NCBI GenBank assembly: GCA_964404285.1
Contig: CAYOJK010000001.1
Location: 83,797 to 147,796, forward strand
Reading direction: 5' to 3'
Source: an uncultured bacterium
Lineage (GTDB): Bacteria; CSSED10-310
DNA length: 64,000 bases
Shown here: piece after piece, positions 16,646 to 47,810 of the stretch
Layout of the letters: the number at the start of each line of letters is the position of its first letter
Position numbering within the stretch: the stretch's first letter is position 1
Translations under genes and position numbers: made by a program
Notes under the pieces: generated by a model
The model's input: the letters and a program-made list of their open reading frames with translations, nothing else
The model's database searches: none
What the model was told of the DNA's origin: nothing

Positions 16646-18217
16646 ATGTTAGCGAAAATTCAAACCAGTTCAATTTTAGGCGTTGATGCTCAACCGGTAT
16701 TGGTTGAGATTTTTATTCGATGGGGTCAATTGCCTTGTTTTCTTACGGTCGGTCTTCCGGATACGGCAGTTCGGGAAAGTAAGGAGCGGATTTTTGCCGC
16801 TTTGAGTCATTCAGGGTATCGTGTTCCGCCGGCCAAAATCACGATCAATCTGGCTCCGGCAGATGTTCGGAAAGAGGGTTCTTCTTTCGATTTGCCTATA
16901 GCGGTCGGCCTTTTATCAGCGATGGAGATTTTACCCGATCGTGAATACCCGGACACACTGATCATTGGGGAGTTATCTTTGGATGGTGATATTCGATCGG
17001 TTCGAGGTGTTCTACCTATTGCCGCCGGCGCCAAAAAACATGGCTGGAAACGCATGATAGTTCCGATTGAAAATGCGCCGGAGGCATCTTTTGTCGATGG
17101 TTTGACGGTTTATGGAGTAAAAAACTTACTGGAAGTCATTCAAATATTGAATGGCGAAAGAACAGTTAAACCTTTCGACAAAACTCTTTTTCAGAATCGA
17201 GAGATCGAGCGTAACACCGATATTGATTTTTTCGATGTCAAAGGCCAAGAGCATGCGAAGCGTGCAATAGAAGTCGCTGCCGCCGGAGGCCACAACATTA
17301 TTCTGATCGGGCCTCCCGGTTCAGGTAAAACCATGTTGACGCGGCGTCTTCCGACGATTTTACCCGCGCTGTCTTTGGAAGAAGCGCTTGACATATCCAA
17401 AATACACTCGATTTCCGGTCTGATCGATCCTGGGCAGGGGTTGGTCTTTACGCGGCCGTTTCGAGCGCCTCATCATTCGATATCGGATGCGGGGTTGATC
17501 GGCGGCGGCAGTTATCCGATGCCGGGGGAGGTCAGTCTGGCTCATCACGGGGTATTGTTTTTAGACGAAATGCCGGAGTTCAGACGTCATGTTCTGGAAG
17601 TCATGCGGCAACCGCTCGAAGACGGTGTTGTCACATTGACGCGGGCTCTGGCATCAGTGACCTACCCGTCCCGCTTCATGCTGGTCGGAGCAATGAACCC
17701 CTGCCCATGTGGTTATTACTCACATCCGGAAAAAACCTGTTTGTGCAGACCGGATATCATCGCTAAATATCTGGGTAGGATTTCCGGGCCGTTGTTGGAT
17801 CGCATCGATTTGCATATCGAGGTCAACGCGGTCAAATTCAGTGATCTGCAGGATCGCCGAAGAGGAGAATCTTCCAAATCCATTCGGGAGCGGGTGGAGG
17901 CGGCTCGAAAGATTCAGCAGGCTCGGTTTTCACAGTCGGCCTCGTTAAATGGCAACCTAGCATCCCATTGTAATTCACATATGTCATCCCGAGAAATCCG
18001 GACTTATTGCAAACTCAATAGTGACGGGTATCGTTTGATGGAACACGCCATGAAAAGGCTGGGGCTGACCGCTCGGGCCTATGACAGAATATTGAAAGTC
18101 GCCAGAACCATTGCCGATCTGGCGGATTCCGAAACCATCGAATCGCATCACCTTGCAGAAGCCATTCAGTATCGTGCGCTGGACAGATCGCACTGGACAC
18201 ACGCGCATACCTACTGA
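16646..18217 (+). CDS. comM: Mg-chelatase-like AAA+ ATPase ComM/YifB
   Basis: 523-aa ORF with an N-terminal Lon-like domain, Walker A GPPGSGKT, Walker [10 protein letters not shown] and a C-terminal ChlI/ComM domain. There is a strong GGAGGA RBS. Its 3' 520 bp recurs at 35.0-35.6 kb. Confidence 0.93.
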
Positions 18218-18292
18218 ATTTATTCCTCCTCCCTCCTCCTCATTACCATTAACCCTCCAACCGGCACGCCAACCCGGCGTGCCGACCTTTTT
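17696..18292 (+). repeat. Left copy of a ~595 bp direct repeat (comM 3' end + terminator), putative attL of the integrated island
   Basis: The sequence from CTGCCCATGTGGTTATTACTCACATCCGGAAAAAACCTG through the terminator T-run recurs at 35045-35637 with roughly 90-92% identity and no large indels. Confidence 0.85.
18262..18292 (+). terminator. rho-independent terminator of comM
   Basis: GC-rich hairpin CGGCACGCC-aaccc-GGCGTGCCG followed by ACCTTTTT. Confidence 0.8.
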
Positions 18293-18536
18293 GGAAGAAG
18301 AAATAAGGGTGATGAAACGCTGTAAATTACCAAACAGGCATATAAGAAGATCGTTCACACTATCTGGAAACCCAAAACCAAATTGCAAACATTACTTGAC
18401 ACTAACAACGACCGGATTTATTGACATTGTGATCAGGCTATTCCCGATTGCCATTTAACGTGGGATTTAACATGCTAAATAGGGTGGGACGTGATAATTG
18501 CCAAAGGAAAAATCAAGAAACAGATCAGTATCTTAT

Positions 18537-18830
18537 TCACTGTTTCTTTTCTTGCAGAATAAAGATGTTTTTCCTGATCGAGCCTTCATCTACGTTTTTA
18601 GATTTGGTTAATAATGCTGTTTCCAGATTTACGAGCATTTTAAATCTATCGTGACCGCTACTTGCATGACCATCAACATTACATCCGTGTAATTCGTCAA
18701 AATTTGGATACGACAGAACAAGCCCGCTTTTTAAAGAACCCACTACTGATCCACTCCGAGGATCTACAATGTCAATATCTACCATAAGCTCTATTTCACC
18801 TTCTGTTTCTGGGAAAAAAACTTTTGCCAA
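18537..18830 (-). CDS. hypothetical small protein (island cargo)
   Basis: 97-aa ORF with a TTG start only and no recognisable motifs; listed for completeness. Confidence 0.25.
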   Translation of the reverse strand: MAKVFFPETEGEIELMVDIDIVDPRSGSVVGSLKSGLVLSYPNFDELHGCNVDGHASSGHDRFKMLVNLETALLTKSKNVDEGSIRKNIFILQEKKQ

Positions 18831-19097
18831 TTTTGACTCATATAAATAGCTGCGGATATAATGATGATGTGTGCGTAAAAAGTAATTTTCAGGAAAATCG
18901 ATGTTGTATTTTCAAGGGTTTGCGAAGGGGATTCGAGCTAAAAACAGGGTTTTTACATTTGCATCAATGATCAGTAGAAGCCAATATATCAGATGTATTT
19001 TAAAATTTTTCATAACCTCTCCTTTTTACTCGCCTTTTTCATCATGTCCTCAAGATTTTCTTTTATTCGAGCAGGAGTGAAGTGAGGTGGTCAAGTA

Positions 19098-19134
19098 AAA
19101 ACGGACAGAATCATTAAATGTGACAATTTCATGG
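19098..19134 (-). pseudogene. Remnant 5' end of a paralogue of the 167-aa RHS-adjacent (immunity-like) gene
   Basis: About 37 bp here match 27417-27453 at ~85% identity. It encodes MKLSHLMILSVFT followed by a stop, versus MRLSHLTILSVFFMF... for the intact gene at 27451. Confidence 0.5.
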
Positions 19135-19638
19135 CTAAACCGATGGTTCATTATTACTTCTAACACAACGAATCTGTCGAATCATGAAAAGTATCGGGAT
19201 TAGCAAATGCAGAAGAGATGCCCCCAAATAAGCTACTATTTGAAACGTTTCGAACGGCGCTGCAAAGAGATGTTTCCTTGTGTAAAATATGAAAAACAAG
19301 TGAAAGCCTATTGTAAAGTAACAAAACATCACAAGCATGCTATTGGGTTTATTCCAAAAAGCGATCCCAAACGAAATGAGAAGCAACCATAGCAAACCCT
19401 CTGAAGCAGATAGCCAAAACGGATAGTCTAAGTATTCTTCGTCTGATACGTAGCTTTCATTTGATTGAGAGACATAAGTAATGACATCAGGCAAGTAAAA
19501 CAACAAAGCCATGATGGCACAAAAAAGAATCATAGCACCAAATTTAACAAGCTCTTTTGTATTTCGTTTTTCAGGTGTTGGGCTTATCCCATTCGTCCTC
19601 CTTTGCCGTTTGTCAGAAAGCCTCACCTCCTGAAGCAT
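19135..19638 (-). CDS. orphan cassette: small polytopic membrane protein whose N-terminus is homologous to the RHS C-terminal tail
   Basis: With the ATG at 19636-19638 the product starts MLQEVRLSDKRQRRTNGISPT..., matching the last residues of the RHS protein (LQEVKLYDKRQRRTNRLSPT). Three or four hydrophobic helices follow. The six-frame ORF extends to a GTG at 19713. Confidence 0.4.
   Translation of the reverse strand: MLQEVRLSDKRQRRTNGISPTPEKRNTKELVKFGAMILFCAIMALLFYLPDVITYVSQSNESYVSDEEYLDYPFWLSASEGLLWLLLISFGIAFWNKPNSMLVMFCYFTIGFHLFFIFYTRKHLFAAPFETFQIVAYLGASLLHLLIPILFMIRQIRCVRSNNEPSV
19576..19635. repeat. 60 bp direct repeat, copy 1 (matches the RHS 3' end at 27463-27522)
   Basis: TGTTGGGCTTATCCCATTCGTCCTCCTTTGCCGTTTGTCAGAAAGCCTCACCTCCTGAAG versus TGTTGGGCTTAATCTATTCGTCCTCCTTTGCCGTTTGTCATAAAGCTTCACCTCCTGAAG; 55 of 60 bases identical, same orientation. 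Confidence 0.9.
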
Positions 19639-20213
19639 TTCTTTCGTTTCCGGGTCGATGGATTTTGTAAAGCGGCAAGATAACCGGCCCGCGCTTCCGA
19701 GCGCATAAACCACATTATAGCTCCAATCAGCGCAGGACCGAATAGAAACAGAGCATCACAAAAACCGACCCCCTCATTTTTCTCATTTTTACCTGATCGC
19801 AGTGAATCAATTAGATCGATAAAATAACTTATGATCAGCGTTACTATAAGAAATTGCGCATACACATATTTTGTGAACAAAGCGATAAGCAGCAATATTC
19901 CAGTTGTGATTTTAGATTTCTTGCCCGTTCCCGCCGCCGCTAAAAGTGTCAATACCGTAATAAATGCGCCTTGCATTTCGAGCATCGGTTGTGCTGCGTA
20001 CAGTGTCATCATTGGGGAAGTGATAGACAGAACCAAGGCAATCAAACCGGCGGTCCACGCAGCTCCTGGCGCTGCACTCTTACGGGCCGCCCATATCGTC
20101 GCAGCGATTGTCCCCACCCAGAAAATCAACGACAATAAACGAGACGATAAAAAAGATGGACCGCCTATGAAAAATAAAACGGCAAGAATCCACGAATGAA
20201 GAAACGGCCACAA
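19623..20213 (-). CDS. hypothetical polytopic membrane protein
   Basis: 196-aa ORF with 5-6 hydrophobic helices and a TTG start; its stop lies inside the 60-bp repeat. There is no motif evidence. Confidence 0.35.
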   Translation of the reverse strand: MWPFLHSWILAVLFFIGGPSFLSSRLLSLIFWVGTIAATIWAARKSAAPGAAWTAGLIALVLSITSPMMTLYAAQPMLEMQGAFITVLTLLAAAGTGKKSKITTGILLLIALFTKYVYAQFLIVTLIISYFIDLIDSLRSGKNEKNEGVGFCDALFLFGPALIGAIMWFMRSEARAGYLAALQNPSTRKRKKCFRR

Positions 20214-20448
20214 ATTCTGCGATTTCGTGGCAATTACAAAAGCTCGAAAATCATGATTTTTTAGCGCTGATTAAATATTCAAACCATTAAGGCTATGGTC
20301 GGCTCCATCCCATGTCGGCGGCCCTTGCGTCAAAATGAGGGCTTTGTAATTTATCAAGCAGGTTATTGCGAGGATGCCTATTATTATGACCGAAATTAAT
20401 GATCTGTTTTTGTTTGCAATAGGGTTAAGACTAATCATTAGGCTTATG

Positions 20449-20925
20449 TTAATTTATCGAGACGAAAAGAGTCAGACCTTTAATAATAGCCGTTGCATCC
20501 AGTTCCAGGTTCACCTTCGAGGTTCCGTTCATGTCCGGTGCGTATTTCTGCAATCTTTCGAGGAGTTCCAGGTTGCTTACCGGCACATAAGAAGTCGAAA
20601 GTACGGCCCGACACTCGCGCCCGTCCATCCGGACCAAGAATTCCTTGTCCTGGGAGAGCTTTTGGAGCCATCGGTTCACGTTCTGCGCCCGAAGATCTAC
20701 GAGATCATCATCGCACCGCCGGAGGTATCCGGCCTGCACGCCGATCCGGTTCGCGAGCGTATTGAGGGCCTGGGATTGCAACGGCGATGAATTCATGAAT
20801 CCGCTTAACTTCATCGTGCCGTCCGGGTTCATCCGGATCTCGGATACTGGCAATGTCATGTCGAAGAACCGCTTTTCCCTTTCCCGCAACGTCTCGATTG
20901 CTTCAGATATGCTGATCAGTTTCAT
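20449..20925 (-). CDS. hypothetical protein (GC-rich mobile module), translationally coupled to the Cas4-like nuclease
   Basis: 158-aa ORF starting MKLISISEAIE with an AAAGGAGG RBS; its ATG overlaps the stop of the upstream nuclease gene. The six-frame ORF continues upstream to 21012. Confidence 0.55.
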   Translation of the reverse strand: MKLISISEAIETLREREKRFFDMTLPVSEIRMNPDGTMKLSGFMNSSPLQSQALNTLANRIGVQAGYLRRCDDDLVDLRAQNVNRWLQKLSQDKEFLVRMDGRECRAVLSTSYVPVSNLELLERLQKYAPDMNGTSKVNLELDATAIIKGLTLFVSIN

Positions 20926-21731
20926 GCTGCCACCTCCTTTACGTGGAACTGCCGCATCCCGGAATTTCCTTTCCATTCGATGCATTCCTGAAGATACTCG
21001 CAGTCCGTGCACATCCAGTTTGGCGTCGGGAAGAAGATCCCGGTGCAGATTCCCTGCAACACGGCATTCGCGACATTGAACAGCCGGACATAATCGCTTT
21101 CCGTCCGCTGCACCTTGAAGCTCACAATTCGCGTCTGCTTGGACTTCGTGATGTTGTCCAGCCTGATTCCCGGCTCGATCCGGTCGAACAAGTAGCGGAA
21201 CGCGTAGCTATACGCAGTGAGCTGAAGGCTGGCGTTCACCGTGCTCTCGTCCATGACACGCGCCGATGTCTTGTGCTCGACAATGGTATCGTCGGATTCC
21301 AGCAGGTCGATCACGCCCTTCAGATCCATGTCGAGTATTTCGCCAGTTTCCGGATTCACAAGTGGAATCCTAAACTCTACTTCTACGTCCAGCGGCTTTT
21401 TTTCCGGAAGATTCTCCATGTACTTGAGGATCATCCTCTGGCCGGTTTCGGTGAGTGAATCATGGTTCTGTCCGTCCTTGAACCGAACGTTTTGAAACTT
21501 CCATGCGTACCAGTCTGCCTTGAATATCCGGGCAACTTCTTCCTCGGAGATTTTCGGAGCATGATCTATCCGCCGGCGATGGAGCCACTCAAGCGCGGCA
21601 TGGAAAGAGCTTCCGAATGCCAGCGCAGCAGGCTTGAATTTCGGCTCGATCTCGTCGATGTAGGAAAACCTGTATTTCAAGCTGCACATCATATACAAGT
21701 TGATTTGGCTGACGCTGATGTAATCACGCAT
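20922..21731 (-). CDS. Cas4-like PD-(D/E)XK nuclease with Fe-S cysteine cluster (RecB-family exonuclease)
   Basis: The N-terminus has QINLYMMCSLKYRFSY (the Cas4 motif I region with the first Cys). The core has D...EHK, and the C-terminus has CTDCEYLQEC, so the four Cys spacing resembles the Cas4/AddB Fe-S cluster. AGGAGG RBS; the ATG at 21731 sits just downstream of a TTG. Confidence 0.7.
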   Translation of the reverse strand: MRDYISVSQINLYMMCSLKYRFSYIDEIEPKFKPAALAFGSSFHAALEWLHRRRIDHAPKISEEEVARIFKADWYAWKFQNVRFKDGQNHDSLTETGQRMILKYMENLPEKKPLDVEVEFRIPLVNPETGEILDMDLKGVIDLLESDDTIVEHKTSARVMDESTVNASLQLTAYSYAFRYLFDRIEPGIRLDNITKSKQTRIVSFKVQRTESDYVRLFNVANAVLQGICTGIFFPTPNWMCTDCEYLQECIEWKGNSGMRQFHVKEVAA

Positions 21732-21797
21732 CAATGCCTCCTTTCTGCTTGGCTGGCAGGGAAATTATCCCGTGCCAGCCCGTTTCGATGTTTGCGG

Positions 21798-22271
21798 TTA
21801 CGCCGCCTGCTTGACCATGTCGTCGATCAGCTTGCTCGCCTGGGACTTCGTCACGTCGTTGAGATCATTGACTTTGAGGATCTGGATCAGGGTCGAAAGT
21901 GCTTCGTCGCCCTCGATGCCCCTCTCAGCGAGCAGCCGGAACAGATAACGCCGCTGGGATTCGGTCATCGCGCCGTTCTTCTTCCCGCTGTTCTGTTCCC
22001 GCTTGAACTGGCTCGGAATAACGGAACCGTTGGAGCAGTTTCCCTTGTTCGCCTGGATGACGCTTTCCGGGAGTGTCGAAGCGGGTCTTCCGTTCCCGTT
22101 CGTCCGGCTCTCAAGCTGGCGGGACACGGCTGCTTCCGCCTCCTTGAACAGGTAATCCGCGACTTCCGCGATGTCGTTGAACTCGGTGTCGCATTCCATG
22201 GAGACCGTGAAGGTCTCGTTTTCGTAGTCTCCTGTGGAGACCTTCTTCGAGAAATTGGTCAGGATTCTCAT
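21798..22271 (-). CDS. hypothetical protein (GC-rich mobile module)
   Basis: 157-aa ORF with a strong AGGAGG RBS and no recognisable domain; co-oriented with the nuclease and replication-relaxation genes. Confidence 0.5.
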   Translation of the reverse strand: MRILTNFSKKVSTGDYENETFTVSMECDTEFNDIAEVADYLFKEAEAAVSRQLESRTNGNGRPASTLPESVIQANKGNCSNGSVIPSQFKREQNSGKKNGAMTESQRRYLFRLLAERGIEGDEALSTLIQILKVNDLNDVTKSQASKLIDDMVKQAA

Positions 22272-22607
22272 GGCTTTTACCTCCTTTCCTGACAGGTTCG
22301 GTTACACAGCTTTATTGCTGTCGATTGGGTTATTTATTTGTAAATGAGCGATATCACTCTGGTGATAGCCGATAAAGAAGTGTCCATGCTTGAAGTATGA
22401 ACGCCTCTTCAACGGCCTCCTGCAATCTGCCGGAAACCCATTTCTTGCCGGGAATCCGGCAGATCTGACGACTCTGGCAAGTTTCGGTCATTAAGGACGC
22501 ACTTATGGTGTTTCGGCGCCCCCAGGAAGCCCCAGGAGATTCCTCGCTGGCTCTCGGCAGCCTCTATTGATCCTGGCTTTCAAGAGTAAACGAGGAATGA
22601 CTCTGGA

Positions 22608-23522
22608 TCATTCGGGAATCAAAGCCATGGGACGGTCATAATCGCTGACAGCGCGATACCATATTGGCTCAAAGATGCTTGATGGATTTTCCAAGTTGAT
22701 TCTGTCGAAGGTCGTGAACCAGAAGAAGCCGCTGCCCCTTCCGGAATCGCTGGCCTTTATTGTCGTCCTGATGAGGTTACCCATCCTCCGGTCGTTGGTC
22801 GTGACCGTCAGCACTCGGAAATTCCGCACGCCGTATCTGTCGACATAACCCTTATGCTTCCACCATTCATAATACCCACGCTGCTTCAGCTTGAATTTCC
22901 GATGCCCGATGGTTCCCCTGTCGATCTCCACATACGCGCACATCCTGCCCTTGGGAGTCTGGATGCACATGAACCCGTCCGGAACCAACGGAACCCGAAC
23001 ATGGTGGCCTCTGTCATTTTCAATGAAAATGGTGTCGCCAACAGCCCGATCCTGCTTCCAGAACAGGAAGTCCAGATCTTCACGATCTCGGCATGCGGCA
23101 AGGATCGCTGCCCTGAAGTCGTTTCTTCTCAGCGTATGGTGAAGCAGGAAGTAGTAGTTACGGCTGGAATCCACCCTTGATACTTTTCCCGGTTCTATTC
23201 CGAGCTGTTCTGCAATCAATCTCCGGCCATGCGAGCCGACAACGTATATTGACGGGGGTGAACCTTCGCCAACGAATAACGGGAGATCAACTCGATCAAG
23301 CAATCTGTTTTGCCAGAGCAGGTAAAGCCTGATCCTGGCTGTTTGAAGGTTTGAGTTGATCATGAGCGCGACCTGCTTGGCCGTCGCGAACCTCAGCTCG
23401 GAGACGGATTTGACGATCTGGATGTCGCGCTCAGTTATTTTCATCCTCGGTGGGTTTACCGTGTCCCTCTTGAATCTTGATCTCCGCTTCTTTCTTCTTG
23501 TGAAAAGTGGGTTTCCATTCAT
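22608..23522 (-). CDS. replication-relaxation family protein (Replic_Relax, plasmid/ICE-type)
   Basis: 304-aa ORF. The N-terminal wHTH segment (ITERDIQIVKSVSELRFATAKQVALMI) and overall architecture match the replication-relaxation family. The start overlaps the stop of the upstream small ORF. Confidence 0.65.
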   Translation of the reverse strand: MNGNPLFTRRKKRRSRFKRDTVNPPRMKITERDIQIVKSVSELRFATAKQVALMINSNLQTARIRLYLLWQNRLLDRVDLPLFVGEGSPPSIYVVGSHGRRLIAEQLGIEPGKVSRVDSSRNYYFLLHHTLRRNDFRAAILAACRDREDLDFLFWKQDRAVGDTIFIENDRGHHVRVPLVPDGFMCIQTPKGRMCAYVEIDRGTIGHRKFKLKQRGYYEWWKHKGYVDRYGVRNFRVLTVTTNDRRMGNLIRTTIKASDSGRGSGFFWFTTFDRINLENPSSIFEPIWYRAVSDYDRPMALIPE

Positions 23523-23779
23523 TTTTCTGGATACCTTATGCCGAATGTCTTCGCGTAGAATTTCAGACGGGAGATGAATGAATCGGTTTTGGATCGAGGT
23601 ATGATCGCGATGCTGTTCGCCCTTTCGGTTTCCCTGAGCGCCATACGGATCAATGGCCGGGGAACATTCGAGACGATTTCAAGGAATTGCTTCCAATTCT
23701 TCTCATTGAGTTGCTTCGCCAGGCTTTTTGCTTGAATGCGTGAGATAATTGGATAGAATCGATTTCTTTTTTTTTTCAT
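23519..23779 (-). CDS. hypothetical small basic protein
   Basis: 86-aa ORF translationally coupled to the replication-relaxation gene. Confidence 0.4.
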   Translation of the reverse strand: MKKKRNRFYPIISRIQAKSLAKQLNEKNWKQFLEIVSNVPRPLIRMALRETERANSIAIIPRSKTDSFISRLKFYAKTFGIRYPEK

Positions 23780-23986
23780 TGTCGTTAGTTTTGTTTATCC
23801 ACAAGGAAATGTGGCTGATTAGTAAGGTTTTACGGCAATCAGAGTCGTCCGTTGTTTCTTACTGGAAGCAGTCCGTCGTTGCGTCTCGTAACTTCTAGTT
23901 CATAAATACTTGGTTCTAGTTTCTTCCAAGTGGCACCGGTCAGTGAAATCTTGGAACGGAAGCGGGTTCCGTGTAAAAGCTGTGGA

Positions 23987-24352
23987 CTATTGGCCTGTTT
24001 TTTCTTCCTTCTGGAAGTGGAAGATTGCGAGTCCAGAATGAGGCAGAATGCGGTAGTTAAGCGATGCGAACCGGCCGGACGGCGTTCGCTTTTTCTCAGC
24101 GATATCGATGATCGGCCTTCCGTTTAATCGGAATCTGCTGAGGGATCTTACACGATCCCAGGCTGACGTATGCGAAACCCCGATATCCCTCGCCAACCTT
24201 GCCTGCGATGGATTACATTTCCCGTCCTGGTTCATGTATGTTGCGAGAACGCACAAAGTCTTCCAGTCTCGGTCTGATATTGCCGAGAGCAGCCCGGACT
24301 TCCGGGCTTCTATGTAAAATTTGACGAATATTTTCTTGTTCTGGTCTTGCAT
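23987..24352 (-). CDS. helix-turn-helix DNA-binding protein
   Basis: 121-aa ORF with a wHTH-like segment (QARLARDIGVSHTSAWDRVRSL). Confidence 0.5.
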   Translation of the reverse strand: MQDQNKKIFVKFYIEARKSGLLSAISDRDWKTLCVLATYMNQDGKCNPSQARLARDIGVSHTSAWDRVRSLSRFRLNGRPIIDIAEKKRTPSGRFASLNYRILPHSGLAIFHFQKEEKTGQ

Positions 24353-24455
24353 GATTATTCGATCTGAGCGAATTAGATTACATAAATATTGCTCCGTAGA
24401 ATGGACGAATTATTTTTTCCATTCCAAGTGCGCATGGGTAGCGGTGTAGGACTTG

Positions 24456-24761
24456 CTAGCTGTTGGGCGGATGAGCTTTCTGAGCTGAAATATCTTCCGG
24501 TCGGAAGCCCTCCTGAATGAGTTCATCCCTAGCGTCCCGGGCAAGGTTCGGAAACAACTGGTCGATCCTGGCGTTAAGCAGGAACTGCAACTTCAGAGCG
24601 TTCTTGAGATTCGGCGACTTGAACCCGGTTTCCCAGTAGCCGATTGCCACGGCTGTCTTGTGACCGAGAAGGCTTGCCGCCTTCTTGCGGTTCAGTCCGC
24701 GCAGCTTTCTGACAAGCGCGACTTGGTTTGGAGGATTTGGTTTTATGGGTTTAGTATTCAT
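24456..24761 (-). CDS. XRE-family HTH transcriptional regulator
   Basis: 101-aa ORF with the HTH_3 signature (NRKKAASLLGHKTAVAIGYWETGFKSPNLKNALKL). Confidence 0.75.
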   Translation of the reverse strand: MNTKPIKPNPPNQVALVRKLRGLNRKKAASLLGHKTAVAIGYWETGFKSPNLKNALKLQFLLNARIDQLFPNLARDARDELIQEGFRPEDISAQKAHPPNS

Positions 24762-25082
24762 GGAGCATCCTCCGGATCTCCGGATTTATTAGGTCTCTTA
24801 ATCCTACCAACCTGTCCACAGATACGCTCCCAAAATTGTTTCCCATGAGAAAAAAACCGTCGATCAAAGACGATTCTTTTATCTAAACTATGCGATTTTC
24901 CATGTGGATAACTCGGTCTGAATGTACCTTGACCCGGTACGTGGTACGGGTATTGTACGTACGTTTCTTTTCATCCCGCGCAGGTATTTCCACCTCAAAT
25001 ACTTCCAAAGAGAAGCAAAGTTGCCTGATCTTGCCCGGTATCTCCGTTATGCTGGAAGCAGAAGTAACTTCCAGCAAACAAA

Positions 25083-25259
25083 ATGGAGATTTCAAAAAAG
25101 AAGCTTGAAGAATTCAAGCAAATTATCCGCGAAGACTACGGCCAGGAGCTTTCCGACAAGGAAGCATACCGGGTTGCCAACAAGGTGCTGACAATGTTCA
25201 GGATCATTTGCCAGCCCCAGCCTGAGGACTTCCGAAATAATCACAAACAAGATGCCTAA
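25083..25259 (+). CDS. small ORF (58 aa) overlapping the serine recombinase start; candidate accessory/directionality factor
   Basis: The ATG at 25083 reads through to a TAA at 25257-25259, which overlaps the recombinase ATG at 25252. The product is MEISKKKLEEFKQIIREDYGQELSDKEAYRVANKVL.... It is below the 60-aa cutoff of the supplied track and has no clear RBS. Confidence 0.3.
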   Translation: MEISKKKLEEFKQIIREDYGQELSDKEAYRVANKVLTMFRIICQPQPEDFRNNHKQDA

Positions 25260-26829
25260 ATATTTCGTTTACACGCGCAAATCGACCGAATCGGAGGACA
25301 AACAAGTCCTATCCCTGGAATCCCAGCAAAAAGAGCTGGATAGTTTTGTCGAGCGAGAGAAACTGGAAGTCGTGGAATATATCGAGGGTGAATCGAAGAG
25401 CGCGAAGCAGCCTGGAAGGCCGATTTTCGACAAAATGATCAAGCGGATCGAGAAAGGAGAAGCTGACGGGATCATTGCCTGGCATCCGGATCGGCTTGCT
25501 AGAAATTCCGTTGACGGCGGGAAAATTATTTATCTGCTCGATACAGGCAAGCTGAAAGAGCTGAAATTTCCGACGTACCGTTTCGAGAACGACTCCCAGG
25601 GAAAGTTCATGCTTAACCTGATCTTCGGCCAGTCGAAGTATTACGTTGACAGCCTGAGCGAGAACGTAAGGCGTGGAAACAAAACGAAGCTCGAAAAAGG
25701 CTGGCTTCCGGGCGTCGCGCCCATGGGATACCTGAACGATGTAAAAAACAAGACAATCGTGAAAGATCCAGAAAGGTTTCGGCTGATCAGAAAGATGTGG
25801 AATATGCTGCTTTCCGGCGCGTATTCCGTCCCTGAGATCCACCGGATAGCCTGCGATGACTGGGGCTTTAAGACGAAGAAGTTCAAGCGGACAGGCGGCA
25901 AGGAAATCAGTCGGAGCATGATTTATAGGCTGTTTGAGAATCCATTCTATTACGGGCTGATCAGACGCAATGGCGACACATACCAGGGAGCGCATGAACC
26001 GATGGTGACACTCGCCGAGTTCGAGCGAGTGCAGAGATTACTCGGAAGGGATGAACGTCCAAGATATGAAAAACATGATTTCGCTTATACAGGAATGATC
26101 CGGTGCGCCGAATGCGGTTGTCAGATTACCGCGAGCAATCACAAAAATCGGTTCGGATCTCGGTATATCTATTACCACTGTACAAAACGAAAAAAAGGAG
26201 CCAAATGCTCCCAAAAATATGTGCGATTAGAGGAATTGGAACGGCAGATCCTAAAAATACTGGACGATATTACGATTTCCGATCAGGTCAAGGATTGGGC
26301 TATCCAGTATCTGCGAGAGAAAAATGACAGCGAGATTATTGACCGACAGCAGATATTCAAAGCCCAGCAACGAGCTTATGCAGCCTGCCAGAAGCAACTT
26401 GACGAACTAACCCGGATGCGCCTGAGAGATCAGGTGAACGATTCAGAATATGCCTCCATGAAAAAGGAACTTTTATCGGAACTGATCAGCCTAAAAGAAA
26501 AATTGACCGATACGGAGCATCGGGCGAGTAGATGGTTTGAACTTTCAGAGAAGGCGTTTATATTCGCGAATGAAGCGAAAAAACGGTTCGAGACCGGATC
26601 ATTCAATCAAAAACGGGAAATTGTCCAATCTCTCGGTTTGAACTTTTCATTGAAGGACGGAAAACTGCATGTACAACTGGAAATTCCGTACCTCATAATA
26701 TCGAAAAAACCTAAAAATCGCAGTTGGCAGGCCACAGTAGACATAATCGGAACCTTTTTTCGTAAATTGGACGGTGATTTCCATATTCCAACTTGGACTT
26801 CTGAAAATGAGTCCGCAATCACCCCTTAG
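25252..26829 (+). CDS. large serine recombinase (resolvase/invertase N-domain + recombinase + zinc-ribbon domains)
   Basis: 525-aa ORF with the N-terminal catalytic domain YTRKSTESEDKQVLSLESQ (Ser nucleophile), a DRLAR motif and a central recombinase domain. A Cys pair (CAECGC...HCTKRK) is followed by a coiled coil. Confidence 0.9.
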   Translation: MPKYFVYTRKSTESEDKQVLSLESQQKELDSFVEREKLEVVEYIEGESKSAKQPGRPIFDKMIKRIEKGEADGIIAWHPDRLARNSVDGGKIIYLLDTGKLKELKFPTYRFENDSQGKFMLNLIFGQSKYYVDSLSENVRRGNKTKLEKGWLPGVAPMGYLNDVKNKTIVKDPERFRLIRKMWNMLLSGAYSVPEIHRIACDDWGFKTKKFKRTGGKEISRSMIYRLFENPFYYGLIRRNGDTYQGAHEPMVTLAEFERVQRLLGRDERPRYEKHDFAYTGMIRCAECGCQITASNHKNRFGSRYIYYHCTKRKKGAKCSQKYVRLEELERQILKILDDITISDQVKDWAIQYLREKNDSEIIDRQQIFKAQQRAYAACQKQLDELTRMRLRDQVNDSEYASMKKELLSELISLKEKLTDTEHRASRWFELSEKAFIFANEAKKRFETGSFNQKREIVQSLGLNFSLKDGKLHVQLEIPYLIISKKPKNRSWQATVDIIGTFFRKLDGDFHIPTWTSENESAITP

Positions 26830-26947
26830 GCTTCGTAAGTATAATAGCAGCGGATTAATTAGCTGGCAATGAACACCACTTCCCCTGAGAAGTATTTGTG
26901 GGGATAAAATCTGAATATTTCATCCTCTTTTGATCCTCCTGGGTTTG

Positions 26948-27451
26948 TCATTTCTTCAGATGGAAGACTGTTGTAGCAACTATTGGGTCTATGCAAGGAG
27001 TTGTCTTATATTCATTTAGATTTGTTTTGTCCACCTTTTCTGGCATTTTATATGCTGGTAACGTGAACTTGAGTTCATAGTCACCTTCTGGAAGCTCAAA
27101 GTCTTTTAAGTTTATAGTCTTTTGGCAAACAAGATAACTTGAGCTTGGCAGATAGAAGAAAGTCCTTCCCATTGGGAAATGCACATCTGTAACAAGGAAT
27201 CCTTTGTTAATTGCCGGATCATCTAGTTTGACAAAATGATAAGGTATGTCAGAGCCTACTCTTTCCAAGATCTTATCATCGAGAATACAACCCTCGGCAT
27301 CATCTGCACACATCAATTTAAGATTAATCTGCATTTCTTCACATTCATAAAATGTCTTTTTCTCCAGTTCGATTTCCATCTTTACCTGGCTATATGCAAT
27401 TTGGTGGAACATGAAAAAAACGGATAGTATCGTTAAATGTGACAATCTCAT
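26948..27451 (-). CDS. secreted small protein, candidate immunity protein for the RHS C-terminal metallopeptidase toxin
   Basis: 167-aa ORF with a signal-peptide-like N-terminus (MRLSHLTILSVFFMFHQIAYSQ). Its ATG overlaps the RHS stop codon (ATGA), indicating translational coupling. Confidence 0.5.
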   Translation of the reverse strand: MRLSHLTILSVFFMFHQIAYSQVKMEIELEKKTFYECEEMQINLKLMCADDAEGCILDDKILERVGSDIPYHFVKLDDPAINKGFLVTDVHFPMGRTFFYLPSSSYLVCQKTINLKDFELPEGDYELKFTLPAYKMPEKVDKTNLNEYKTTPCIDPIVATTVFHLKK

Positions 27452-30400
27452 GGTAACTCCTTTGTTGGGCTTAATCTATTCGTCCTCCTTTGCCGTTTGT
27501 CATAAAGCTTCACCTCCTGAAGGACCTTTTTGATATAGGGAATATTTCTAATCTCTTCAGGTCTCTTATTATGGGGCTCATACTGTTTTTTTAGAACCGT
27601 ATAATCATATGCTTCCTGTGCAGCAGTCCCCAGGTTGCTGATTGCGTCTTCTGCGTGCCCAATCTCATGTATCAATACACCTGCTAACTTTTTGTTTCTT
27701 GTAACGAGCACGTCCTCGACGGTGATTGTAACGCCGTATAGAACTGTTAAATCGGGATTTATAGTATCTGTCACTTTAGTCCCTGTGCTATCAAGTTTCA
27801 TTGCGGGAGAAATCCTTGCTTTATGTGTTCCTTCGGCTGGTATACCCGTTGGATCTACAAGGTTCTGGCCAGATGTTATAGTTAAGTCTGGATTTTGAGT
27901 TCCTCTATATTTAGCAAGAGTGCTTTTTACTGTTGGAGATGCATTTTCTAAACTTAAAACCATTCCCTCCAATGCTTTTGAATGGGGTCCTCTGAAAAAT
28001 ATTTCAAGACCGTTAGGATCTGTGAAATTTACAGGGTTATTTTGGCAAAATGTATAGCGGTTCCAACTTTGCGGGTTTTCCAAATATCCTTTTATAGCAT
28101 CAGGACTTAAAAACCTTGGAGGCAATTCATAGTTTGTTTGCTCGGTGATGGCATTAAGATAACGAGCGTTGAAATAGTGTTTCTGGGTTGTAGATTCGAA
28201 CAGTTTACCAGTGTATCGAATATCTTGTGCGGAAAACACCGGACTTCCAAGATCATCAAAATCTGCGCCAAAGGGCTCGTAATTGTGCACCTCATATGGC
28301 AGGCCGCCTGTTTGCTCCGGCCATACTATTGTGGCAACATCATTAGTGAACGCCATTGGGGAGCCAAGGTGATTAAGGTGCGCAAAAATGATAGTAGTTG
28401 TTGCTCCATCATCTGTAACTCTTACTAAGAGTTCTCCACCTAAATAAATATTATCAATGAAAAGCATTGCTGATGTATCGAACTCTGATAGTAAAAGTTC
28501 TCCGAGATATGAATAAATGAATGTGTTGCTTCCTTCTGCCTTGTAAATTCTCTTATCTATTCCGTCATATCGGTATTGAACTGTAGAGTCGGTATCGATC
28601 AGTTTCCCTAGCTCATCGTAGGTGTAAAGATAAATGCTGTCATCGGTCATATTGCCGTCAGCATCATGAGTAACGCTGGCAATCTTGTTATTGGAATAGG
28701 TGAAGCTTGAGGTGTCTGAGGGATTGGTTTTGGCAACACTCAGAATATTGCCCACGCTGTCATAGGAATAGGTGAAATTCCTGCTCCCAAGTCCGGTGGC
28801 CGTCTCAATCCTGTTCAAATTGTCATACGTGAAGGTGGTTGTTCCAAGTTCGGTGATGTTACCAAAGGCATCATAGGCAAAACTATCGTTCACTAAATCA
28901 TCAACGCCGATTTGCGTGACCCAGCTCGATGGCCGATTTCGAACATCATGAGAAATTGTCGTTACAACTCCATTGCCAAACACATACTCTTCAAGCCCGC
29001 CTGCCGGATTGTGCAGGAGACCATTTGCCATGGTCTGTGTTCCGGAACTCCCGGTAAGAGATATTGTTTCCAGTAGATTTGTTCCCGCTCCATATGTGTA
29101 AGAAACATCGATTCCGGACGGATAAACGATATTGTTGAGGTTCCCCAGCGTGTCATATCCAAAGTAATAACTTGCAGTCAGTGCTGGACTTGCAAGGTTT
29201 ACATCTTTTAATAGATTGCGTCCCTGGACATCAAATTCCGGCCAGACTAAAATGCTCTCCTCGTTAAGAGACACACCTTTACGCACTACAGCACCGGTTC
29301 GGTGATTGAAAGCCTCCACATAAAAACCTGGAGCGTCATCACCGGTAAAATTCAATATGTCATCTCCATCATAGTAGTAGTCCACCTTGATTTGATCTGC
29401 TCCGCTGCCGGCATTCTTTGAAGTTAATCTGTAGATCTCATCATACGTGAAGCTGATAACCCTGCCAGAAGCTTTGGAGATTGTCTCGACTTGGCCGGAA
29501 TTATAATAGGTGTAAGTGACGGTGCCTGTTTCCGGATGTGTCTCGCTTGTCAAGCGCCCTAGGCCGTCATAGATAAACGTCCGGTCAGAACACGTCACAT
29601 CATTGGGATGATCTACCAACGTCAGATTATCCAGGACATCATATCCATAGTCGAAAAGCTTGCTGTCGGCATCGGTAATCTGATCCAGCCTGCCCAGAGC
29701 ATCATATAATTTCACTGTTGTCTGGGTTCCTCTAGTAATAGTCACTTCATTTCCGTCATAGGAATAGGTCGTTGTTCCGTCCGGATCAGTCACGTCAATC
29801 AACCTGTTGAGGGGGCCATATGTGTAATACATTCCGTCTGTTGAAGAAGACGAAAATGATGCTTCCGAGATGAAATTTGGATTCCCGACAGCATCGTATT
29901 CCTGATTAATGTAGGATGGCCCGGCTTGGTCGCTCGGAATTATGGTCTGTTTCAATCTGCCTAGAGCGTCGTAATTGTAGGTTATAGAATACGATCCCTG
30001 TGTTGATGTTACCTGTCCGCCAGTCACATCATATGTCAGAGCCGTTTGCAGGTCTGAGGGTGGTGTTATCTGGATCAAATGCCCCAGATCGTCATAAACA
30101 TAATTCGTCGTGTTCCCGTTCGGATCGGTGATGCTTGTCACTCGGCCTGTATCCGGGTCAACTCCTTGTGAAAACGTCATGTAACTTGAATCCGGCAACT
30201 GCTGAGGAGTGGTGATTTGAGAAATGGTTCCGGCATTCCAGGCAAATGTAGTCACCTTGGCTTGTGCATCTGTAATCGTGTAAAGATTGCCTGCATCTCC
30301 TGCTGAAGTGTAATAAGCATATCCCACTATAATGTCAGGGGATCCGGTGGACGGATCTGTCCACTGATTCACCGACTGCAAGCGAGTAAATTTGGGGTCA

Positions 30401-35044: not shown

Positions 35045-35637
35045 AACCCTGCCCATGTGGTTATTACTCACATCCGGAAAAAACCTGTTTGTGCAGACCG
35101 GATATCATCGCTAAATATTTGGGGCGGATATCCGGGCCATTGTTGGATCGTATCGACTTACACATTGAGGTCAACGCGGTCAAATTCAGCGATCTGCAGG
35201 ATCGCCGACGAGGGGAATCTTCCAAGTCCATTCGGGAACGAGTGGAAGCCGCTCGACAGATTCAGCAGACGCGGTTTTCGGAATCGGCCTCGTCAAATGG
35301 CAACCTGGCATCACACTGCAATTCTCACATGTCATCCCGTGAAATCCGGACCTATTGCAAGCTCAACAGTGACGGGTATCGTTTGATGGAACATGCCATG
35401 AAAAGGCTGGGGCTGACGGCTCGAGCCTACGACAGAATATTGAAAGTCGCCAGAACCATTGCTGATCTGGCGGATTCCGAAACCATAGAATCGCATCATC
35501 TTGCAGAAGCCATTCAGTATCGTGCGCTGGACAGATCTCACTGGACACAGGCGCATACTTACTGAGTTTGCTCCTCTTCCTCCTCATTACCATTAACCCT
35601 TCAACCGGCACGCCAATCACGGCGTGCCGACCTTTTT
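35045..35637 (+). pseudogene. orphan 3' fragment of comM (right copy of the ~595 bp repeat, putative attR) with its own terminator
   Basis: It encodes the last ~175 aa of ComM ([69 protein letters not shown]...) with several substitutions relative to the intact gene and no N-terminal ATPase domain. A six-frame ORF at 34882-35565 extends upstream into unrelated sequence. Confidence 0.85.
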
Positions 35638-37756: not shown

Positions 37757-38012
37757 AGGAATATGCCATCAAAGTGATCAACACCTTATACATCCGATTA
37801 TCTAATTACTAATCTGCCAATTCAAATAGCTCCTTATGTTAGGATGATTCAACAGCTCTTTTTCTTGTAGCAAAGACTATTTTTCTTTTGGATTATTTTG
37901 TGAAATTCGGGTCGGATTGACCAATCACCCAAAATCCTCCATAATACAAGCATTGCTGCCTTTGCAAAGGCTTATGTTTGTTAGTTTGCACTCATTAACA
38001 CAGGCAAGGACT

Positions 38013-38630
38013 ATGGATACAAAAATTGCAGTTTTCAAAGGGAAGAAAGTCCGGAAAACCATTCACAATAATGAATGGTGGTTTTCGGTAGTTGATGTAT
38101 GTTCAATTTTAACAGAGAGCGCCGATCCAGGCGCTTATTGGCGCAAGTTAAAACAACGACTGAAAGAAGAAGGAAGTGAAGTCGTGACATTTTGTCACGG
38201 GTTGAAATTAGAAGCTCCGGACGGAAAGATGAGAAGCGCCGATTGCGCAAATACAGAGCTTCTCTTCCGTGTAATCCAATCAATCCCGTCACCCAAGGCA
38301 GAACCATTCAAACGATGGCTCGCAAAAGTCGGATACGAACTGGTTCAGGAAATCGAAGATCCAGAGTTGGCGACAAAGCGCACCCGGGCTTTATATAAAG
38401 CCAAGGGATATAGTGACAACTGGATCGAAAAGCGGATGCGCGGAATCGCAATCCGGGATGAACTCACCGATGAATGGCAGAAGCGTGGTGTCAGGGAAGC
38501 GTCCGAATACGCGATACTGACAGCGGAGATATCCAAGGCGGCATTCGACATGACGCCATCGGAATATAAAAAGCACAAGAATCTGAACGGGAAAATCGAT
38601 GGGATCATTCATGCCCGTATTGGATTATAA
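38013..38630 (+). CDS. Bro-N domain protein (phage BRO/antirepressor-like N-terminal domain)
   Basis: The ATG at 38013 gives MDTKIAVFKGKKVRKTIHNNEWWFSVVDVCSILTES..., a typical Bro-N domain pattern. The six-frame ORF starts at 37917, upstream of this ATG. Confidence 0.65.
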   Translation: MDTKIAVFKGKKVRKTIHNNEWWFSVVDVCSILTESADPGAYWRKLKQRLKEEGSEVVTFCHGLKLEAPDGKMRSADCANTELLFRVIQSIPSPKAEPFKRWLAKVGYELVQEIEDPELATKRTRALYKAKGYSDNWIEKRMRGIAIRDELTDEWQKRGVREASEYAILTAEISKAAFDMTPSEYKKHKNLNGKIDGIIHARIGL

Positions 38631-42804: not shown

Positions 42805-43607
42805 ATAGTCCTGACTGGATTATGCTTTTCAATGTGAAGAAAATTTCTTGCACTGCTGGAACGCAGGACACGCTGAGTTTAAAGAATCTGCGAGACAAAA
42901 AATTGAATACGAAATGCGGTGCTTCACACTTTGAAGAATTCGAAGACGTTGAGTACTAGCATGTGACAAAGGTCGCTGATTTAAATTGATTTTACTCATA
43001 CCGCATATGAAGACCATGGAACGTTTACATACAGCTGATTTTCTAGAAAGTGAGGAATTAAAAATTGGCCAGTTACGAGCATAAAAAGTTATTAGAATAT
43101 ATCGTACGCCTGGACAAAGTCCCAGAGGATTCCAGACGGATTGAGTCAAACCTTTGAGACGCCCGCGGCGTTCATTTAAGGACTGACTCTTTGTCTGTAG
43201 TCAAGGTTTTCCGTGTTATTGATCCCGGCTATTTTCCATCGCATCCTTTCTATCCTCGCTCTCAAAGTTTACTACGCTAATCTTTTATAGGCTAGGTGTC
43301 TCATTCATATTGACACAGAGGGTCCTTTATAGTTTTACGGTACTGTAACCATGAGTAGCTGAAAGTGTTTCACTCATGCACATGCAATTCTTAATTTCAA
43401 CGATATTTAGTCTCACAAATCGCTGGTCATGTCAAGAACTTATTGACACCTGCCCCGTTTATTAAAAATCTGATTTTTTTGCTGTCACCAGGCCTCCTTG
43501 CATCTGCGATCCAAGCTGTTACCGAATATTTTTACCCATGCTCCAAATTATCGCCAATAATTTGACCTTTGCTCCAAATTATCGTATAAAAAACCGAGGT
43601 GATGACT

Positions 43608-45558: not shown

Positions 45559-46293
45559 GTGAAAATGCGAGGAACGATTTTACAACCTGGTTACCTGCCT
45601 TGGCTCGGGTTTTTCAACCAGATGGCTCTGTCGGATGTTTTTGTTTTCTATGACGATGTTCAATACGACAAACGAGGATGGCGAAACAGGAACCGGATAA
45701 AAGGCATTTCAGGCCCTATCTGGCTGACCGTGCCGGTTATCACCAAGGGTTGCTTTGAACAAGAATTGCGCCATACACAGATTGACAATTCTCAAAACTG
45801 GGCCAGAAAACACATCGAGGCGATCCGCTTCAATTATCGAAAGGCTCCGTTTTTCAACGATTTTTTTCCAGAAATAGACTCTATTCTTAACACTCATTAC
45901 GACAATCTGACGGCTCTGGACCTTGCATTGATCGACTTGCATGTGCGTTGGCTGCAAATCGATACGGTCAAAACGATGCGCTCATCAGATCTATCGATCG
46001 AATCGACGGATAAAACCGGTCGGTTGGTAGAAATCTGTCTTAAACTGGGCATCACCGATTATATCAGCGGACCGTTGTGCAGAAACTACTTGGACATAAA
46101 TCAGTTTCACCAAGCGGGTTTACGCGTGCTTTTACATGAATATGATCATCCGGAGTATTCTCAACTGCACGGGGAGTTTGTTCCCTATATGGCAACCGTG
46201 GATTTGATGTTCAATGAAGGTGATCGCGCTTTGGAGATTTTGAAGCAGGAATCAGCGCTTGTTGAATACTTCGGTGAGTCCTCAACTGATTGA
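45559..46293 (+). CDS. WbqC-family protein (LPS/O-antigen-associated)
   Basis: 244-aa ORF starting [49 protein letters not shown], characteristic of the WbqC-like family. Confidence 0.75.
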
Positions 46294-47397
46294 GTCTTTG
46301 ATTTTTTCGAACAGCGATTTTTTTCTACCCGGCAGGACGGGAGTGCCTTCTATTTTGGCCAGTTCTTCAAGTAATCGCCGTTGTTCCGGGTCAAGTCGTG
46401 TCGGCGTGACAACGATGACTTTGACATAAAAGTCACCGGGGTAACCGCTTTGGACATTTTTGACGCCTTTCCCCTTCAGAACAAAACTTTTGCCGGTTTG
46501 GGTGCCCGCTGGTATTTTGAGTGTATCTTCCCCATCCAACAAGTCGATTGTAACATGACTTCCCAGGGCAGCCTGAGCAAATGAAATCGGATATTCAAGC
46601 AAGATATCGTCACCATGGCGCTGAAAAACCTCGTGGTCTTTTACCCTGATAACGATGTACAAATCACCTGGCGGACCACCAAAGCTACCCGGTTCACCTT
46701 CACCACGAAGTCGAATTCGAGATCCGCTATCGACGCCTGGAGGAATTTTGACGGTAAGAGTTTTTCGTTTCTCGACTTTTCCAAATCCTCTACAGTTTTT
46801 GCAGGGGTTTTGAATAAATTGGCCTGAACCACGACATTGTGGACATGGCGTTGCAATCGTGAAGAAGCCTTGTGAACGGCGCACCTGCCCACTACCACCA
46901 CATTGCGGACAAAGGGTTGGGCTTGATCCCGGTTCTGCACCGATTCCGGAACACGTTTCGCAGGCTGCCAACTTTTCAACATCAATTTGTTTTTCAATGC
47001 CCTTAACCGCATCCATGAATTCGATCGCCAAATCATACCGCAAGTCGTCTCCAGCCGTTGCTCTGGTTCGTGATCGTCTTCCGGAACCAAAAATATCACC
47101 GAAAATATCGCCAAAAGATTCAAAAATTTCGTCAAACCCCGAGTATGATTGAAACCCGCCCCCATTGAGTCCTTGATGTCCAAACTGGTCATATCTTTGC
47201 CGCTTCACAGGGTCAGACAATACCTGATAGGCCTCGGAAATTTCCTTGAATTTATCCTCTGCTTCACTATCACCATGATTTCTATCCGGGTGATATTTCA
47301 AGGCGAGTTTTCGGTATTTTTGCTTGATGGCTTGTTGATCGGCATTTCGATCGACACCCAGTATTTCATAGTAATCACGTTTGTTGCGGGTCGCCAT
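46282..47397 (-). CDS. dnaJ: molecular chaperone DnaJ (type I, with CxxCxGxG zinc finger)
   Basis: 371-aa ORF with an N-terminal J domain (YYEILGV...HPDRN), four CxxCxGxG repeats and C-terminal substrate-binding domains. Confidence 0.92.
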
Positions 47398-47414: not shown

Positions 47415-47810
47415 CTACATTTTTCCGAAGTCGATAATCTGGATCAATGTGCTCATCGATGTCCTCATCGGAAATTTATCCCCCTCCATCTGATCCATGT
47501 AATTCCGAAGAATTTTACCTGCTTCATAAAGCATTTGATACAGTTGATCCTTTTCTTTTTCCACTGCTTGGATGCGTTGAACAAGCTTGATGATCACCTC
47601 GATACCGGCAAGATTGACTTTCAAATCCTGAGTCAGTTTCAGAATCATTTTTAAGGTATCGACATCGTCATCGGAATAGAGGCGTGTATTTCCCTGTGAT
47701 CGCCTGGGTGTGATAAACCCTCTTTCTTCATAGCCCCTGATTGTCTGAGGCGTGATATTCAGCATTTCAGCGACGATACCAATAGTATATTTACCATCAG
47801 TCAAGGCCAA
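47415..47810 (-). CDS. hspR: MerR-family heat-shock repressor HspR
   Basis: 131-aa ORF with a MerR HTH ([30 protein letters not shown]) sitting between two dnaJ genes downstream of dnaK, matching the HspR operon context. Confidence 0.8.

Follow-up and report, generated by a model that had tools for sequence, protein, structure and literature searches.

The 64,000-nucleotide stretch analysed here (the window) comes from an uncultured bacterium of the lineage CSSED10-310 (contig CAYOJK010000001.1) and carries a full-length RHS gene, the C-terminal toxin domain of whose product we call ToxA. Its partner gene, ImmA, follows directly (Table 1). Two short sequences at the junction of ToxA and ImmA, T within the last codons of the toxin and S across the start of the partner, recur in an orphan block that lies 7.9 kb downstream of the RHS gene on the same strand. 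There, the second copies (T2 and S2) flank a gene of different origin, X. Between the orphan block and the RHS gene lies M′, a truncated integrative element that encodes a large serine recombinase (LSR).

Table 1. Features of the RHS locus and the orphan block, ordered by position in the window (L numbers, loci and contigs used for comparison; P numbers, homologous proteins)
Feature	Positions	Strand	Basis
comM copy A, 3′ end of intact comM/yifB + terminator (18262-18284)	17699-18292	+	Pfam, NCBIfam
Repeat b, dispersed repeat of ~580 bp, includes 97-aa open reading frame	18501-19082	.	97-99% to tRNA-adjacent locus of same organism (L117, L119, L122)
S2, orphan copy of ImmA start (MKLSHLMILSVFT then stop); similarity to S1 stops at 19097	19091-19134	-	Repeat comparison
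X, immunity-type membrane protein gene, four hydrophobic segments, own first ~6-9 codons gone	19135-19575	-	Homologs P0005-P0007; hydropathy
T2, orphan copy of ToxA tail; without stop codon; in frame with X; ATG 19638 at upstream edge	19576-19644	-	Repeat comparison
GT-C/PMT_2-like membrane glycosyltransferase pseudogene, 5′ part only, in-frame stop	19645-20440	-	Translation; weak PMT_2 match, E = 0.002-0.003
M′, truncated serine-recombinase integrative element	20486-26907	.	Pfam; gene order as in L114, L116
LSR of M′, Resolvase + Recombinase + Zn-ribbon	25252-26829	+	Pfam
ImmA, 167-aa partner of ToxA, signal-peptide-like N-terminus	26948-27451	-	Homolog behind P0003 in L022
S1, repeat over ATGA stop/start overlap + first 12 codons of ImmA	27416-27453	-	Repeat comparison
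T1, repeat inside last ~23 codons of ToxA (VLQEVKLYDKRQRRTNRLSPT)	27463-27531	-	Tail conserved in ToxA homologs
Full-length RHS/YD-repeat protein gene, 2368 aa	27448-34554	-	Pfam RHS_repeat, Beta_helix, CBM96, DUF6531; Rhs_assc_core end
ToxA, C-terminal toxin domain after DPNGL, ~185 aa, HEIGH motif (HExxH type)	27451-28005	-	Homologs P0001, P0002, P0003
comM copy B, detached 3′ fragment, codon ~352 to stop + terminator	35047-35637	+	90.6% over 595 bp to copy A

The T pair agrees at 55 of 60 positions (27463-27522 against 19576-19635) with a longest perfect run of 25 bp, and the match can be extended to 60 of 69 (27463-27531 against 19576-19644). The S pair is identical at 33 of 37 positions (27417-27453 against 19098-19134), or 34 of 38 with one base added, and its longest perfect run is 14 bp. 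Both pairs are in direct orientation. Only 9 bp separate S from T at the RHS end, as against 441 bp in the 19-kb copy. An initial annotation, made from the sequence alone, had reported the first pair with 55 of 60 identities, a second pair of ~37 bp, a gap of ~440 bp in the 19-kb copy and a direct orientation; realignment reproduced the coordinates and counts exactly and gave the same orientation. Its translations, MLQEVRLSDKRQRRTN... from the ATG at 19638 and MKLSHLMILSVFT followed by a stop, were likewise correct. The same annotation would have given up its observation if the similarity proved to be a chance match or an assembly artefact. The best local scores of T and S elsewhere in the window were 51 and 30, respectively, as against maxima of 20 and 18 in 200 dinucleotide shuffles. 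Furthermore, exact-protein look-ups with ImmA, X, LSR and RHS retrieved the same T/S arrangement at 99.98-100% identity from more than 30 independent ENA, Logan and NCBI assemblies, with contigs of 1.08 Mb and 378 kb among them. Therefore, chance or artefact has practically no likelihood as the source of these repeats.

The RHS protein matches Pfam RHS_repeat over 4 stretches (E = 1e-29), with TEN_YD-shell among the precomputed hits, as expected of an Rhs polymorphic toxin with an RHS/YD shell. Its motif NPVNFTDPNGL matches the end of the TIGR03696 Rhs_assc_core model, although this match is below cutoff and the query covered the last 22 positions only. ToxA, which follows this motif, has no Pfam family and no PDB sequence match. 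Only three homologs were found among 5.8 billion proteins, P0001 and P0002 at 47% identity and P0003 at 35%. All three share GVLIHEIGHA, end in ...PT.ELP and keep the helix encoded by T; thus, T truly represents the C-terminal end of ToxA. P0003 (302 aa) is an orphan C-terminal region of an Rhs toxin (Rhs-CT). As the closest homologs, P0001 and P0002, are 226-aa stand-alone secreted proteins with signal peptides, the ToxA domain is not always used as an Rhs toxin. The gene for P0001 (L020, 5001-5681; also L021) has an acetyltransferase gene on one side and mutS on the other, and its neighbourhood contains no ImmA-like gene.

The open reading frame of ImmA overlaps the RHS stop codon by ATGA. 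In an unrelated locus (L022), the gene 14 nucleotides after that of P0003 encodes a 165-aa protein with 28% identity to ImmA (E = 4e-18). This synteny makes ToxA and ImmA a conserved pair, and T followed directly by S the ancestral arrangement. The overlap and the pairing in L022 both place a partner gene immediately downstream of the toxin, where ImmA would have a putative neutralising role. Searches of Pfam, NCBIfam and PDB sequences gave no family name for ToxA, ImmA, X or ToxB, the toxin next to which X homologs are found (below). Besides, the C-terminal region of the RHS protein (last 800 residues) had no relatives in a genome-contig scan, and neither T as an exact 24-mer nor a ToxA profile matched metagenome contigs of the JGI collection.

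The 441 bp that separate T2 from S2 were taken by the initial annotation as hydrophobic helices of an alternative toxin tail. The helices are indeed there, as X encodes a four-helix membrane protein; however, X is not a tail. A word/k-mer-indexed protein search with X returned only the self-match, and its family surfaced only in a full HMMER scan of 1.84 billion representatives. This family is small, consisting of P0005 (145 aa, 59% identity), P0006 (151 aa, 43%) and P0007 (46%), and its members are four-helix membrane proteins. In two loci, L112 and L113, the X homolog begins 3 nucleotides after, or overlaps, the end of the gene for another toxin, ToxB. ToxB of L113 is a 204-aa orphan Rhs-CT with NDPINYFDPDGE and the Rhs_assc_core end, and the C-terminus of ToxB of L112 is 49% identical to it (E = 7e-35). 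ToxB is unrelated to ToxA, and a search of the window for the ToxB domain found none. Since the X relatives in these two loci directly follow ToxB, X is an immunity-type gene of a different Rhs toxin family, here situated at the ToxA-stop/ImmA-start junction.

T2 and X together form an intact reading frame for a 167-aa protein (P0004), and X would be expressed, if at all, as this fusion. The first ~20 residues of P0004 (MLQEVRLSDKRQRRTNGI…) are an extension missing from the rest of the X family and equal the translation of T2. At the other end, the X stop codon is 2 nucleotides upstream of the S2 ATG. In other words, X replaces 9 bp exactly at the junction between the ToxA stop and the ImmA start. 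A single insertion would explain both junctions of X, whereas otherwise two separate deletions would have had to stop within a few bases of one gene boundary, which is very unlikely. Belonging to a family of polymorphic-toxin partners and standing here without ToxB, X corresponds to an orphan immunity gene with a putative protective role. Probably it has been retained because its 167-aa reading frame is intact and its product may protect against ToxB-type toxins of competitors. In strain ERZ3460579, an IS5-like insertion sequence (L011, 10582-12142) with a 437-aa DDE_Tnp_1_4 transposase occupies the site between the X stop and the S2 ATG (19134/19135); its target is TTAG, which is apparently duplicated.

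Outside T2 and S2 the homology to the RHS end ceases. A tblastn search of 18250-20520 with ImmA and the last 900 RHS residues returned only the 28-residue tail and no further remnant of ToxA, ImmA or the RHS core, and no ImmA similarity was present downstream of S2. Repeat b starts 15 bp from S2 and marks the cut-off of the ImmA remnant (ImmA′), and the 5′ part of a glycosyltransferase pseudogene adjoins T2. The stretch from 18.3 to 20.5 kb is a patchwork of gene fragments. A PMT_2 gene in L117, near a second copy of repeat b, was considered as the source of the GT-C fragment; the two were unrelated on comparison. Window positions 18501-19082, 37912-38084 and 43293-43326 match (97-99%, 90% and 97%) the contiguous segment 9650-10572 of L117 in a differing order, and in contig L123 the orphan block continues through repeat b into a flank of the L117 type at 92% identity.

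We consider it rather probable that T2-X-S2 (19097-19644, 548 bp) is the relic of a second ToxA/ImmA junction into which the foreign gene X was inserted and which was later truncated, the repeats being paralogous leftovers and no working switch. The second junction would have diverged by ~12% from the live copy at the RHS 3′ end. X, coming from another Rhs toxin family, would have entered precisely at the boundary of toxin stop and immunity start. Truncations would subsequently have taken the remainder of the second toxin and the second ImmA, with the glycosyltransferase pseudogene now upstream of T2 and the dispersed repeat downstream of S2. The decayed M′ element would have inserted 40 bp beyond ImmA, and a deletion would then have removed its far end. 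The homologies and their limits, the family assignments, the synteny of ToxA with ImmA and of ToxB with X, the element boundaries and the stability of the arrangement are shown by the data; we infer the order of these events, the mode of the X insertion (illegitimate or microhomology-mediated) and any function of X. The initial annotation had seen in the 19-kb copy an orphan remnant of a toxin-tail/immunity-start junction, with a foreign mobile element between the copies, and this much holds; its views of the nature of the insert and of the repeats as functional do not.

Several points weigh against the relic interpretation. T and S occur in only two copies, and no relative with an intact ToxA-X-ImmA arrangement or a longer orphan array was found; hence, the history is read from a single locus. 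The placement of X is also unusually precise, with 9 bp replaced and a start within ~6-9 codons of its own start, which could hint at something more directed, and a functional role of the T2-X fusion is putative. That T and S form a conserved landing pad, where a short-homology double crossover brings foreign immunity genes in between the toxin and immunity genes of Rhs loci, appears highly improbable to us. If that were the case, T2-X-S2 would be the donor or the product of such a capture, and Rhs loci would possess a dedicated route for acquiring additional immunity genes. The only unusual feature of the locus is that a heterologous immunity gene sits so precisely at a toxin/immunity junction, and the mechanism of this placement is hypothetical.

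The module between the two repeat copies was described initially as bracketed by them. Besides the LSR gene, M′ contains genes for an Xre-type helix-turn-helix (HTH) protein, an HTH_36 protein, an 86-aa protein, a Replic_Relax protein, a 157-aa protein, a PD-(D/E)XK nuclease and a DUF932 protein cut after residue 147. More than 7,800 homologs of the LSR were found, and the nearest non-identical ones show 64-66% identity. In L114 and L116, LSR homologs (64-65%) head elements of the same gene order, which run on through a 324-aa DUF932 protein and further genes; M′ keeps residues 1-147 of the 324 and lacks the genes beyond. On the right, the DNA homology of M′ to L114 extends beyond the LSR stop as far as 26907, which leaves 40 bp to the ImmA stop; on the left, it breaks off abruptly at 20486. 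These boundaries indicate that M′ inserted immediately downstream of ImmA and that a later deletion removed its left part together with the sequence beyond. M′ has the domains of an LSR element and lacks one of the two ends of a complete element. S1 and T1 lie ~510-550 bp, and T2 and S2 840-1350 bp, outside these boundaries, and the L114 and L116 elements contain no T, S, X or ImmA sequence. The repeats are located off the ends of M′, share only 87-89% identity and have no counterpart in related elements; thus, they are neither attachment sites nor a product of M′ insertion. Therefore, the module is not cleanly bracketed by the repeats: its right end is 40 bp beyond the ImmA stop, its left end is a deletion in DUF932, and the glycosyltransferase pseudogene separates it from T2. 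An inverted repeat at the module ends (20269-20281 and 26912-26924, 12 of 13 positions) scored at chance level and lies outside the boundaries defined by comparison.

The same boundaries bear on two further explanations. Direct repeats around an element with replication and recombinase genes would fit a Campbell-type event, in which a circular module integrated by a single crossover through a T-S segment that it carried. However, the related elements lack such a segment, the homology to L114 stops short of the repeats at 26907, a 12% divergence and the 441-bp insert distinguish the copies, and an unrelated pseudogene stands between M′ and T2; an origin of this kind is extremely improbable. The initial annotation had offered as its first option that a contiguous tandem array (RHS-ToxA-ImmA followed by an orphan ToxA′-X-ImmA′) was simply split when the serine-recombinase element inserted. 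Such an array is favoured by the right end of M′ just 40 bp downstream of the ImmA stop and by the orphan on its far side in the same orientation, and orphan modules interrupted by mobile elements have been documented in contact-dependent inhibition (CDI)/Rhs loci (PMC3150448). In contrast, the left end of M′ at 20486 is a deletion inside DUF932 and no element end, and ~800 bp of unrelated GT-C pseudogene separate it from T2. Both imply that the sequence originally to the left of the insertion site has been lost, so that adjacency cannot be shown and a simple split cannot be reconstructed. We regard this history as possible but doubtful.

The second option of the initial annotation gave the repeats a function, namely as working homology arms through which RecA recombination between T1 and T2 or between S1 and S2 deletes the module or swaps the RHS tail, a toxin switch. 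Their direct orientation and the 25-bp perfect run in T would suit this role. However, the arms are only 69 and 38 bp long at 87-89% identity, with a run of just 14 bp in S, and arms of such lengths are at or below the usual minimum for RecA recombination. A crossover between T1 and T2 is predicted to eliminate ImmA, M′ and the pseudogene and to fuse ToxA in frame to X, as T2 lacks a stop codon. The predicted product of S1 and S2 is ToxA followed by a 13-codon stub. Either event would thus remove the partner of the toxin. Of the RHS-bearing contigs read, 24 of 24 keep ImmA and the LSR gene downstream. All contigs with RHS, ImmA or LSR show the window arrangement, and the sole departure among the X-bearing contigs lies beyond repeat b (L123) and leaves T2-X-S2 unchanged. 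The exact-protein look-ups with ImmA, X, LSR and RHS found no S-type deletion; a T1/T2 product would be invisible to them, as it changes the RHS product and loses the separate X gene. Variants of 154 and 275 residues, considered as alternative arrangements, proved to differ only in gene calling, the underlying DNA being identical. In Salmonella, a main rhs gene is known to recombine with its orphan (PMC3967940), but this orphan switching uses homology in the core region and imports a whole CT with its immunity gene (PMC3967940, PMC3150448), while no alternative CT is present here. Thus, a switch is very unlikely.

The RHS gene, ImmA, M′ and the orphan block all lie within a 17.3-kb island in the 3′ end of comM. 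The island is bracketed by a 595-bp duplication, which the initial annotation did not include, and carries a replacement 3′ end for the gene. The first 73 bp of the two comM copies are identical and the remainder is ~88% identical. In L114, an unrelated metagenome contig, an element interrupts comM at the same NPCPCGY codons (19640-19900; window ~17716-17720), with the gene for its 496-aa serine recombinase abutting the junction; this suggests a conserved LSR attB inside comM. L114 also carries an M-type element 8 kb from its comM junction. The repeated use of comM as an integration site, seen in the 595-bp duplication and in the L114 element at the same codons, raises the possibility that a second, related RHS island once integrated in tandem at this comM site and left the orphan block as its remnant, a deletion having taken its RHS gene, the intervening comM copy and more. 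The divergence of T and S (~12%) equals that of the comM 3′ copies (~12%). However, this equality may be a coincidence, and the window contains no third comM fragment and no second RHS remnant. We find such tandem islands unlikely.

Comparison with a second strain, ERZ3460579 (L001, L011, L023), shows that the arrangement moves as a whole. The core flank from 10.7 to 17.8 kb is 2-7% diverged between the strains, whereas ~17786 to ~37000, which spans the island and ~1.5 kb beyond copy B, is 99.98% identical, with one endpoint inside comM. This switch in identity indicates that the island was exchanged between strains by homologous recombination, as a block already holding both repeat pairs. Adjacent to the island, the low-GC segment 35638-43300 (0.33-0.41) encodes a nucleotidyltransferase, a 491-aa unknown protein, a Bro-N protein and a 1268-aa type IIG restriction-modification enzyme (DUF7149, DUF7814, Eco57I, TaqI_C), and has the appearance of another island or of defence cargo. 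Beside dnaK (48994-50898), a pair of neighbouring minus-strand genes (46282-47397 and 47797-48924) encodes DnaJ paralogs with 60-65% nucleotide similarity. The best matches of comM among 185,579 GTDB species representatives reach 51-58% identity and come from Marinimicrobia, KSB1, Bacteroidota, Latescibacterota and others, which left no genome close enough for comparison with an empty site; reference collections cover this organism poorly.

Previous work has described orphan rhs-CT/rhsI and cdiA-CT/cdiI modules that follow full-length polymorphic-toxin genes (Poole et al. 2011, PMC3150448; Koskiniemi et al. 2014, PMC3967940), and some published orphans have no delimiting motif or immunity gene (PMC3150448). 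The present locus resembles them in having toxin fragments and an immunity-type gene downstream of a full-length rhs gene in the same orientation, with mobile-element sequence among them. In contrast to those modules, the homology here covers only the final ~23 codons of the CT and the initial 12 of the immunity gene and excludes the core/DPxGL region, so that recombination here cannot build a new toxin. Furthermore, the embedded immunity gene belongs to another toxin family, pairing with ToxB elsewhere, and is fused to the toxin tail at the toxin/immunity junction. With ~23 ToxA and 13 ImmA codons only, T2-X-S2 is therefore not an orphan module in the strict sense. X also recalls orphan immunity genes and acquired interbacterial defence (PMC10539506, PMC12247911): it has no cognate toxin in the locus, and protection against non-self toxins is plausible. 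Unlike those genes, X is single rather than part of an array and has no dedicated recombinase system, and its protective role is putative.

LSR prophages adjoining Mg-chelatase/comM-like genes are exemplified by sr1WO of Wolbachia (PMC5447182). M′ shares with LSR integrative elements the recombinase and a conserved synteny, and the LSR element of L114 interrupts comM where the island of the window begins. However, M′ is truncated and lies away from comM, unlike elements of the sr1WO type, and an integrase of the island's own is not identifiable. The island also bears a 595-bp replacement 3′ end of comM, which simple LSR integration does not produce. The closest category for T2-X-S2 is the degenerate orphan toxin/immunity debris of Rhs and CDI loci, ordinary beside polymorphic-toxin genes and revealing no new mechanism. 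Our analysis nevertheless defines two small uncharacterised toxin/immunity pairs, ToxA(HExxH)/ImmA and ToxB/X, and provides a clear example of polymorphic-toxin locus decay with the pickup of a foreign immunity gene in an uncultured, poorly represented lineage. In practice, a mobile module near an RHS gene may be surrounded by short direct repeats that are neither a switch nor an insertion signature.

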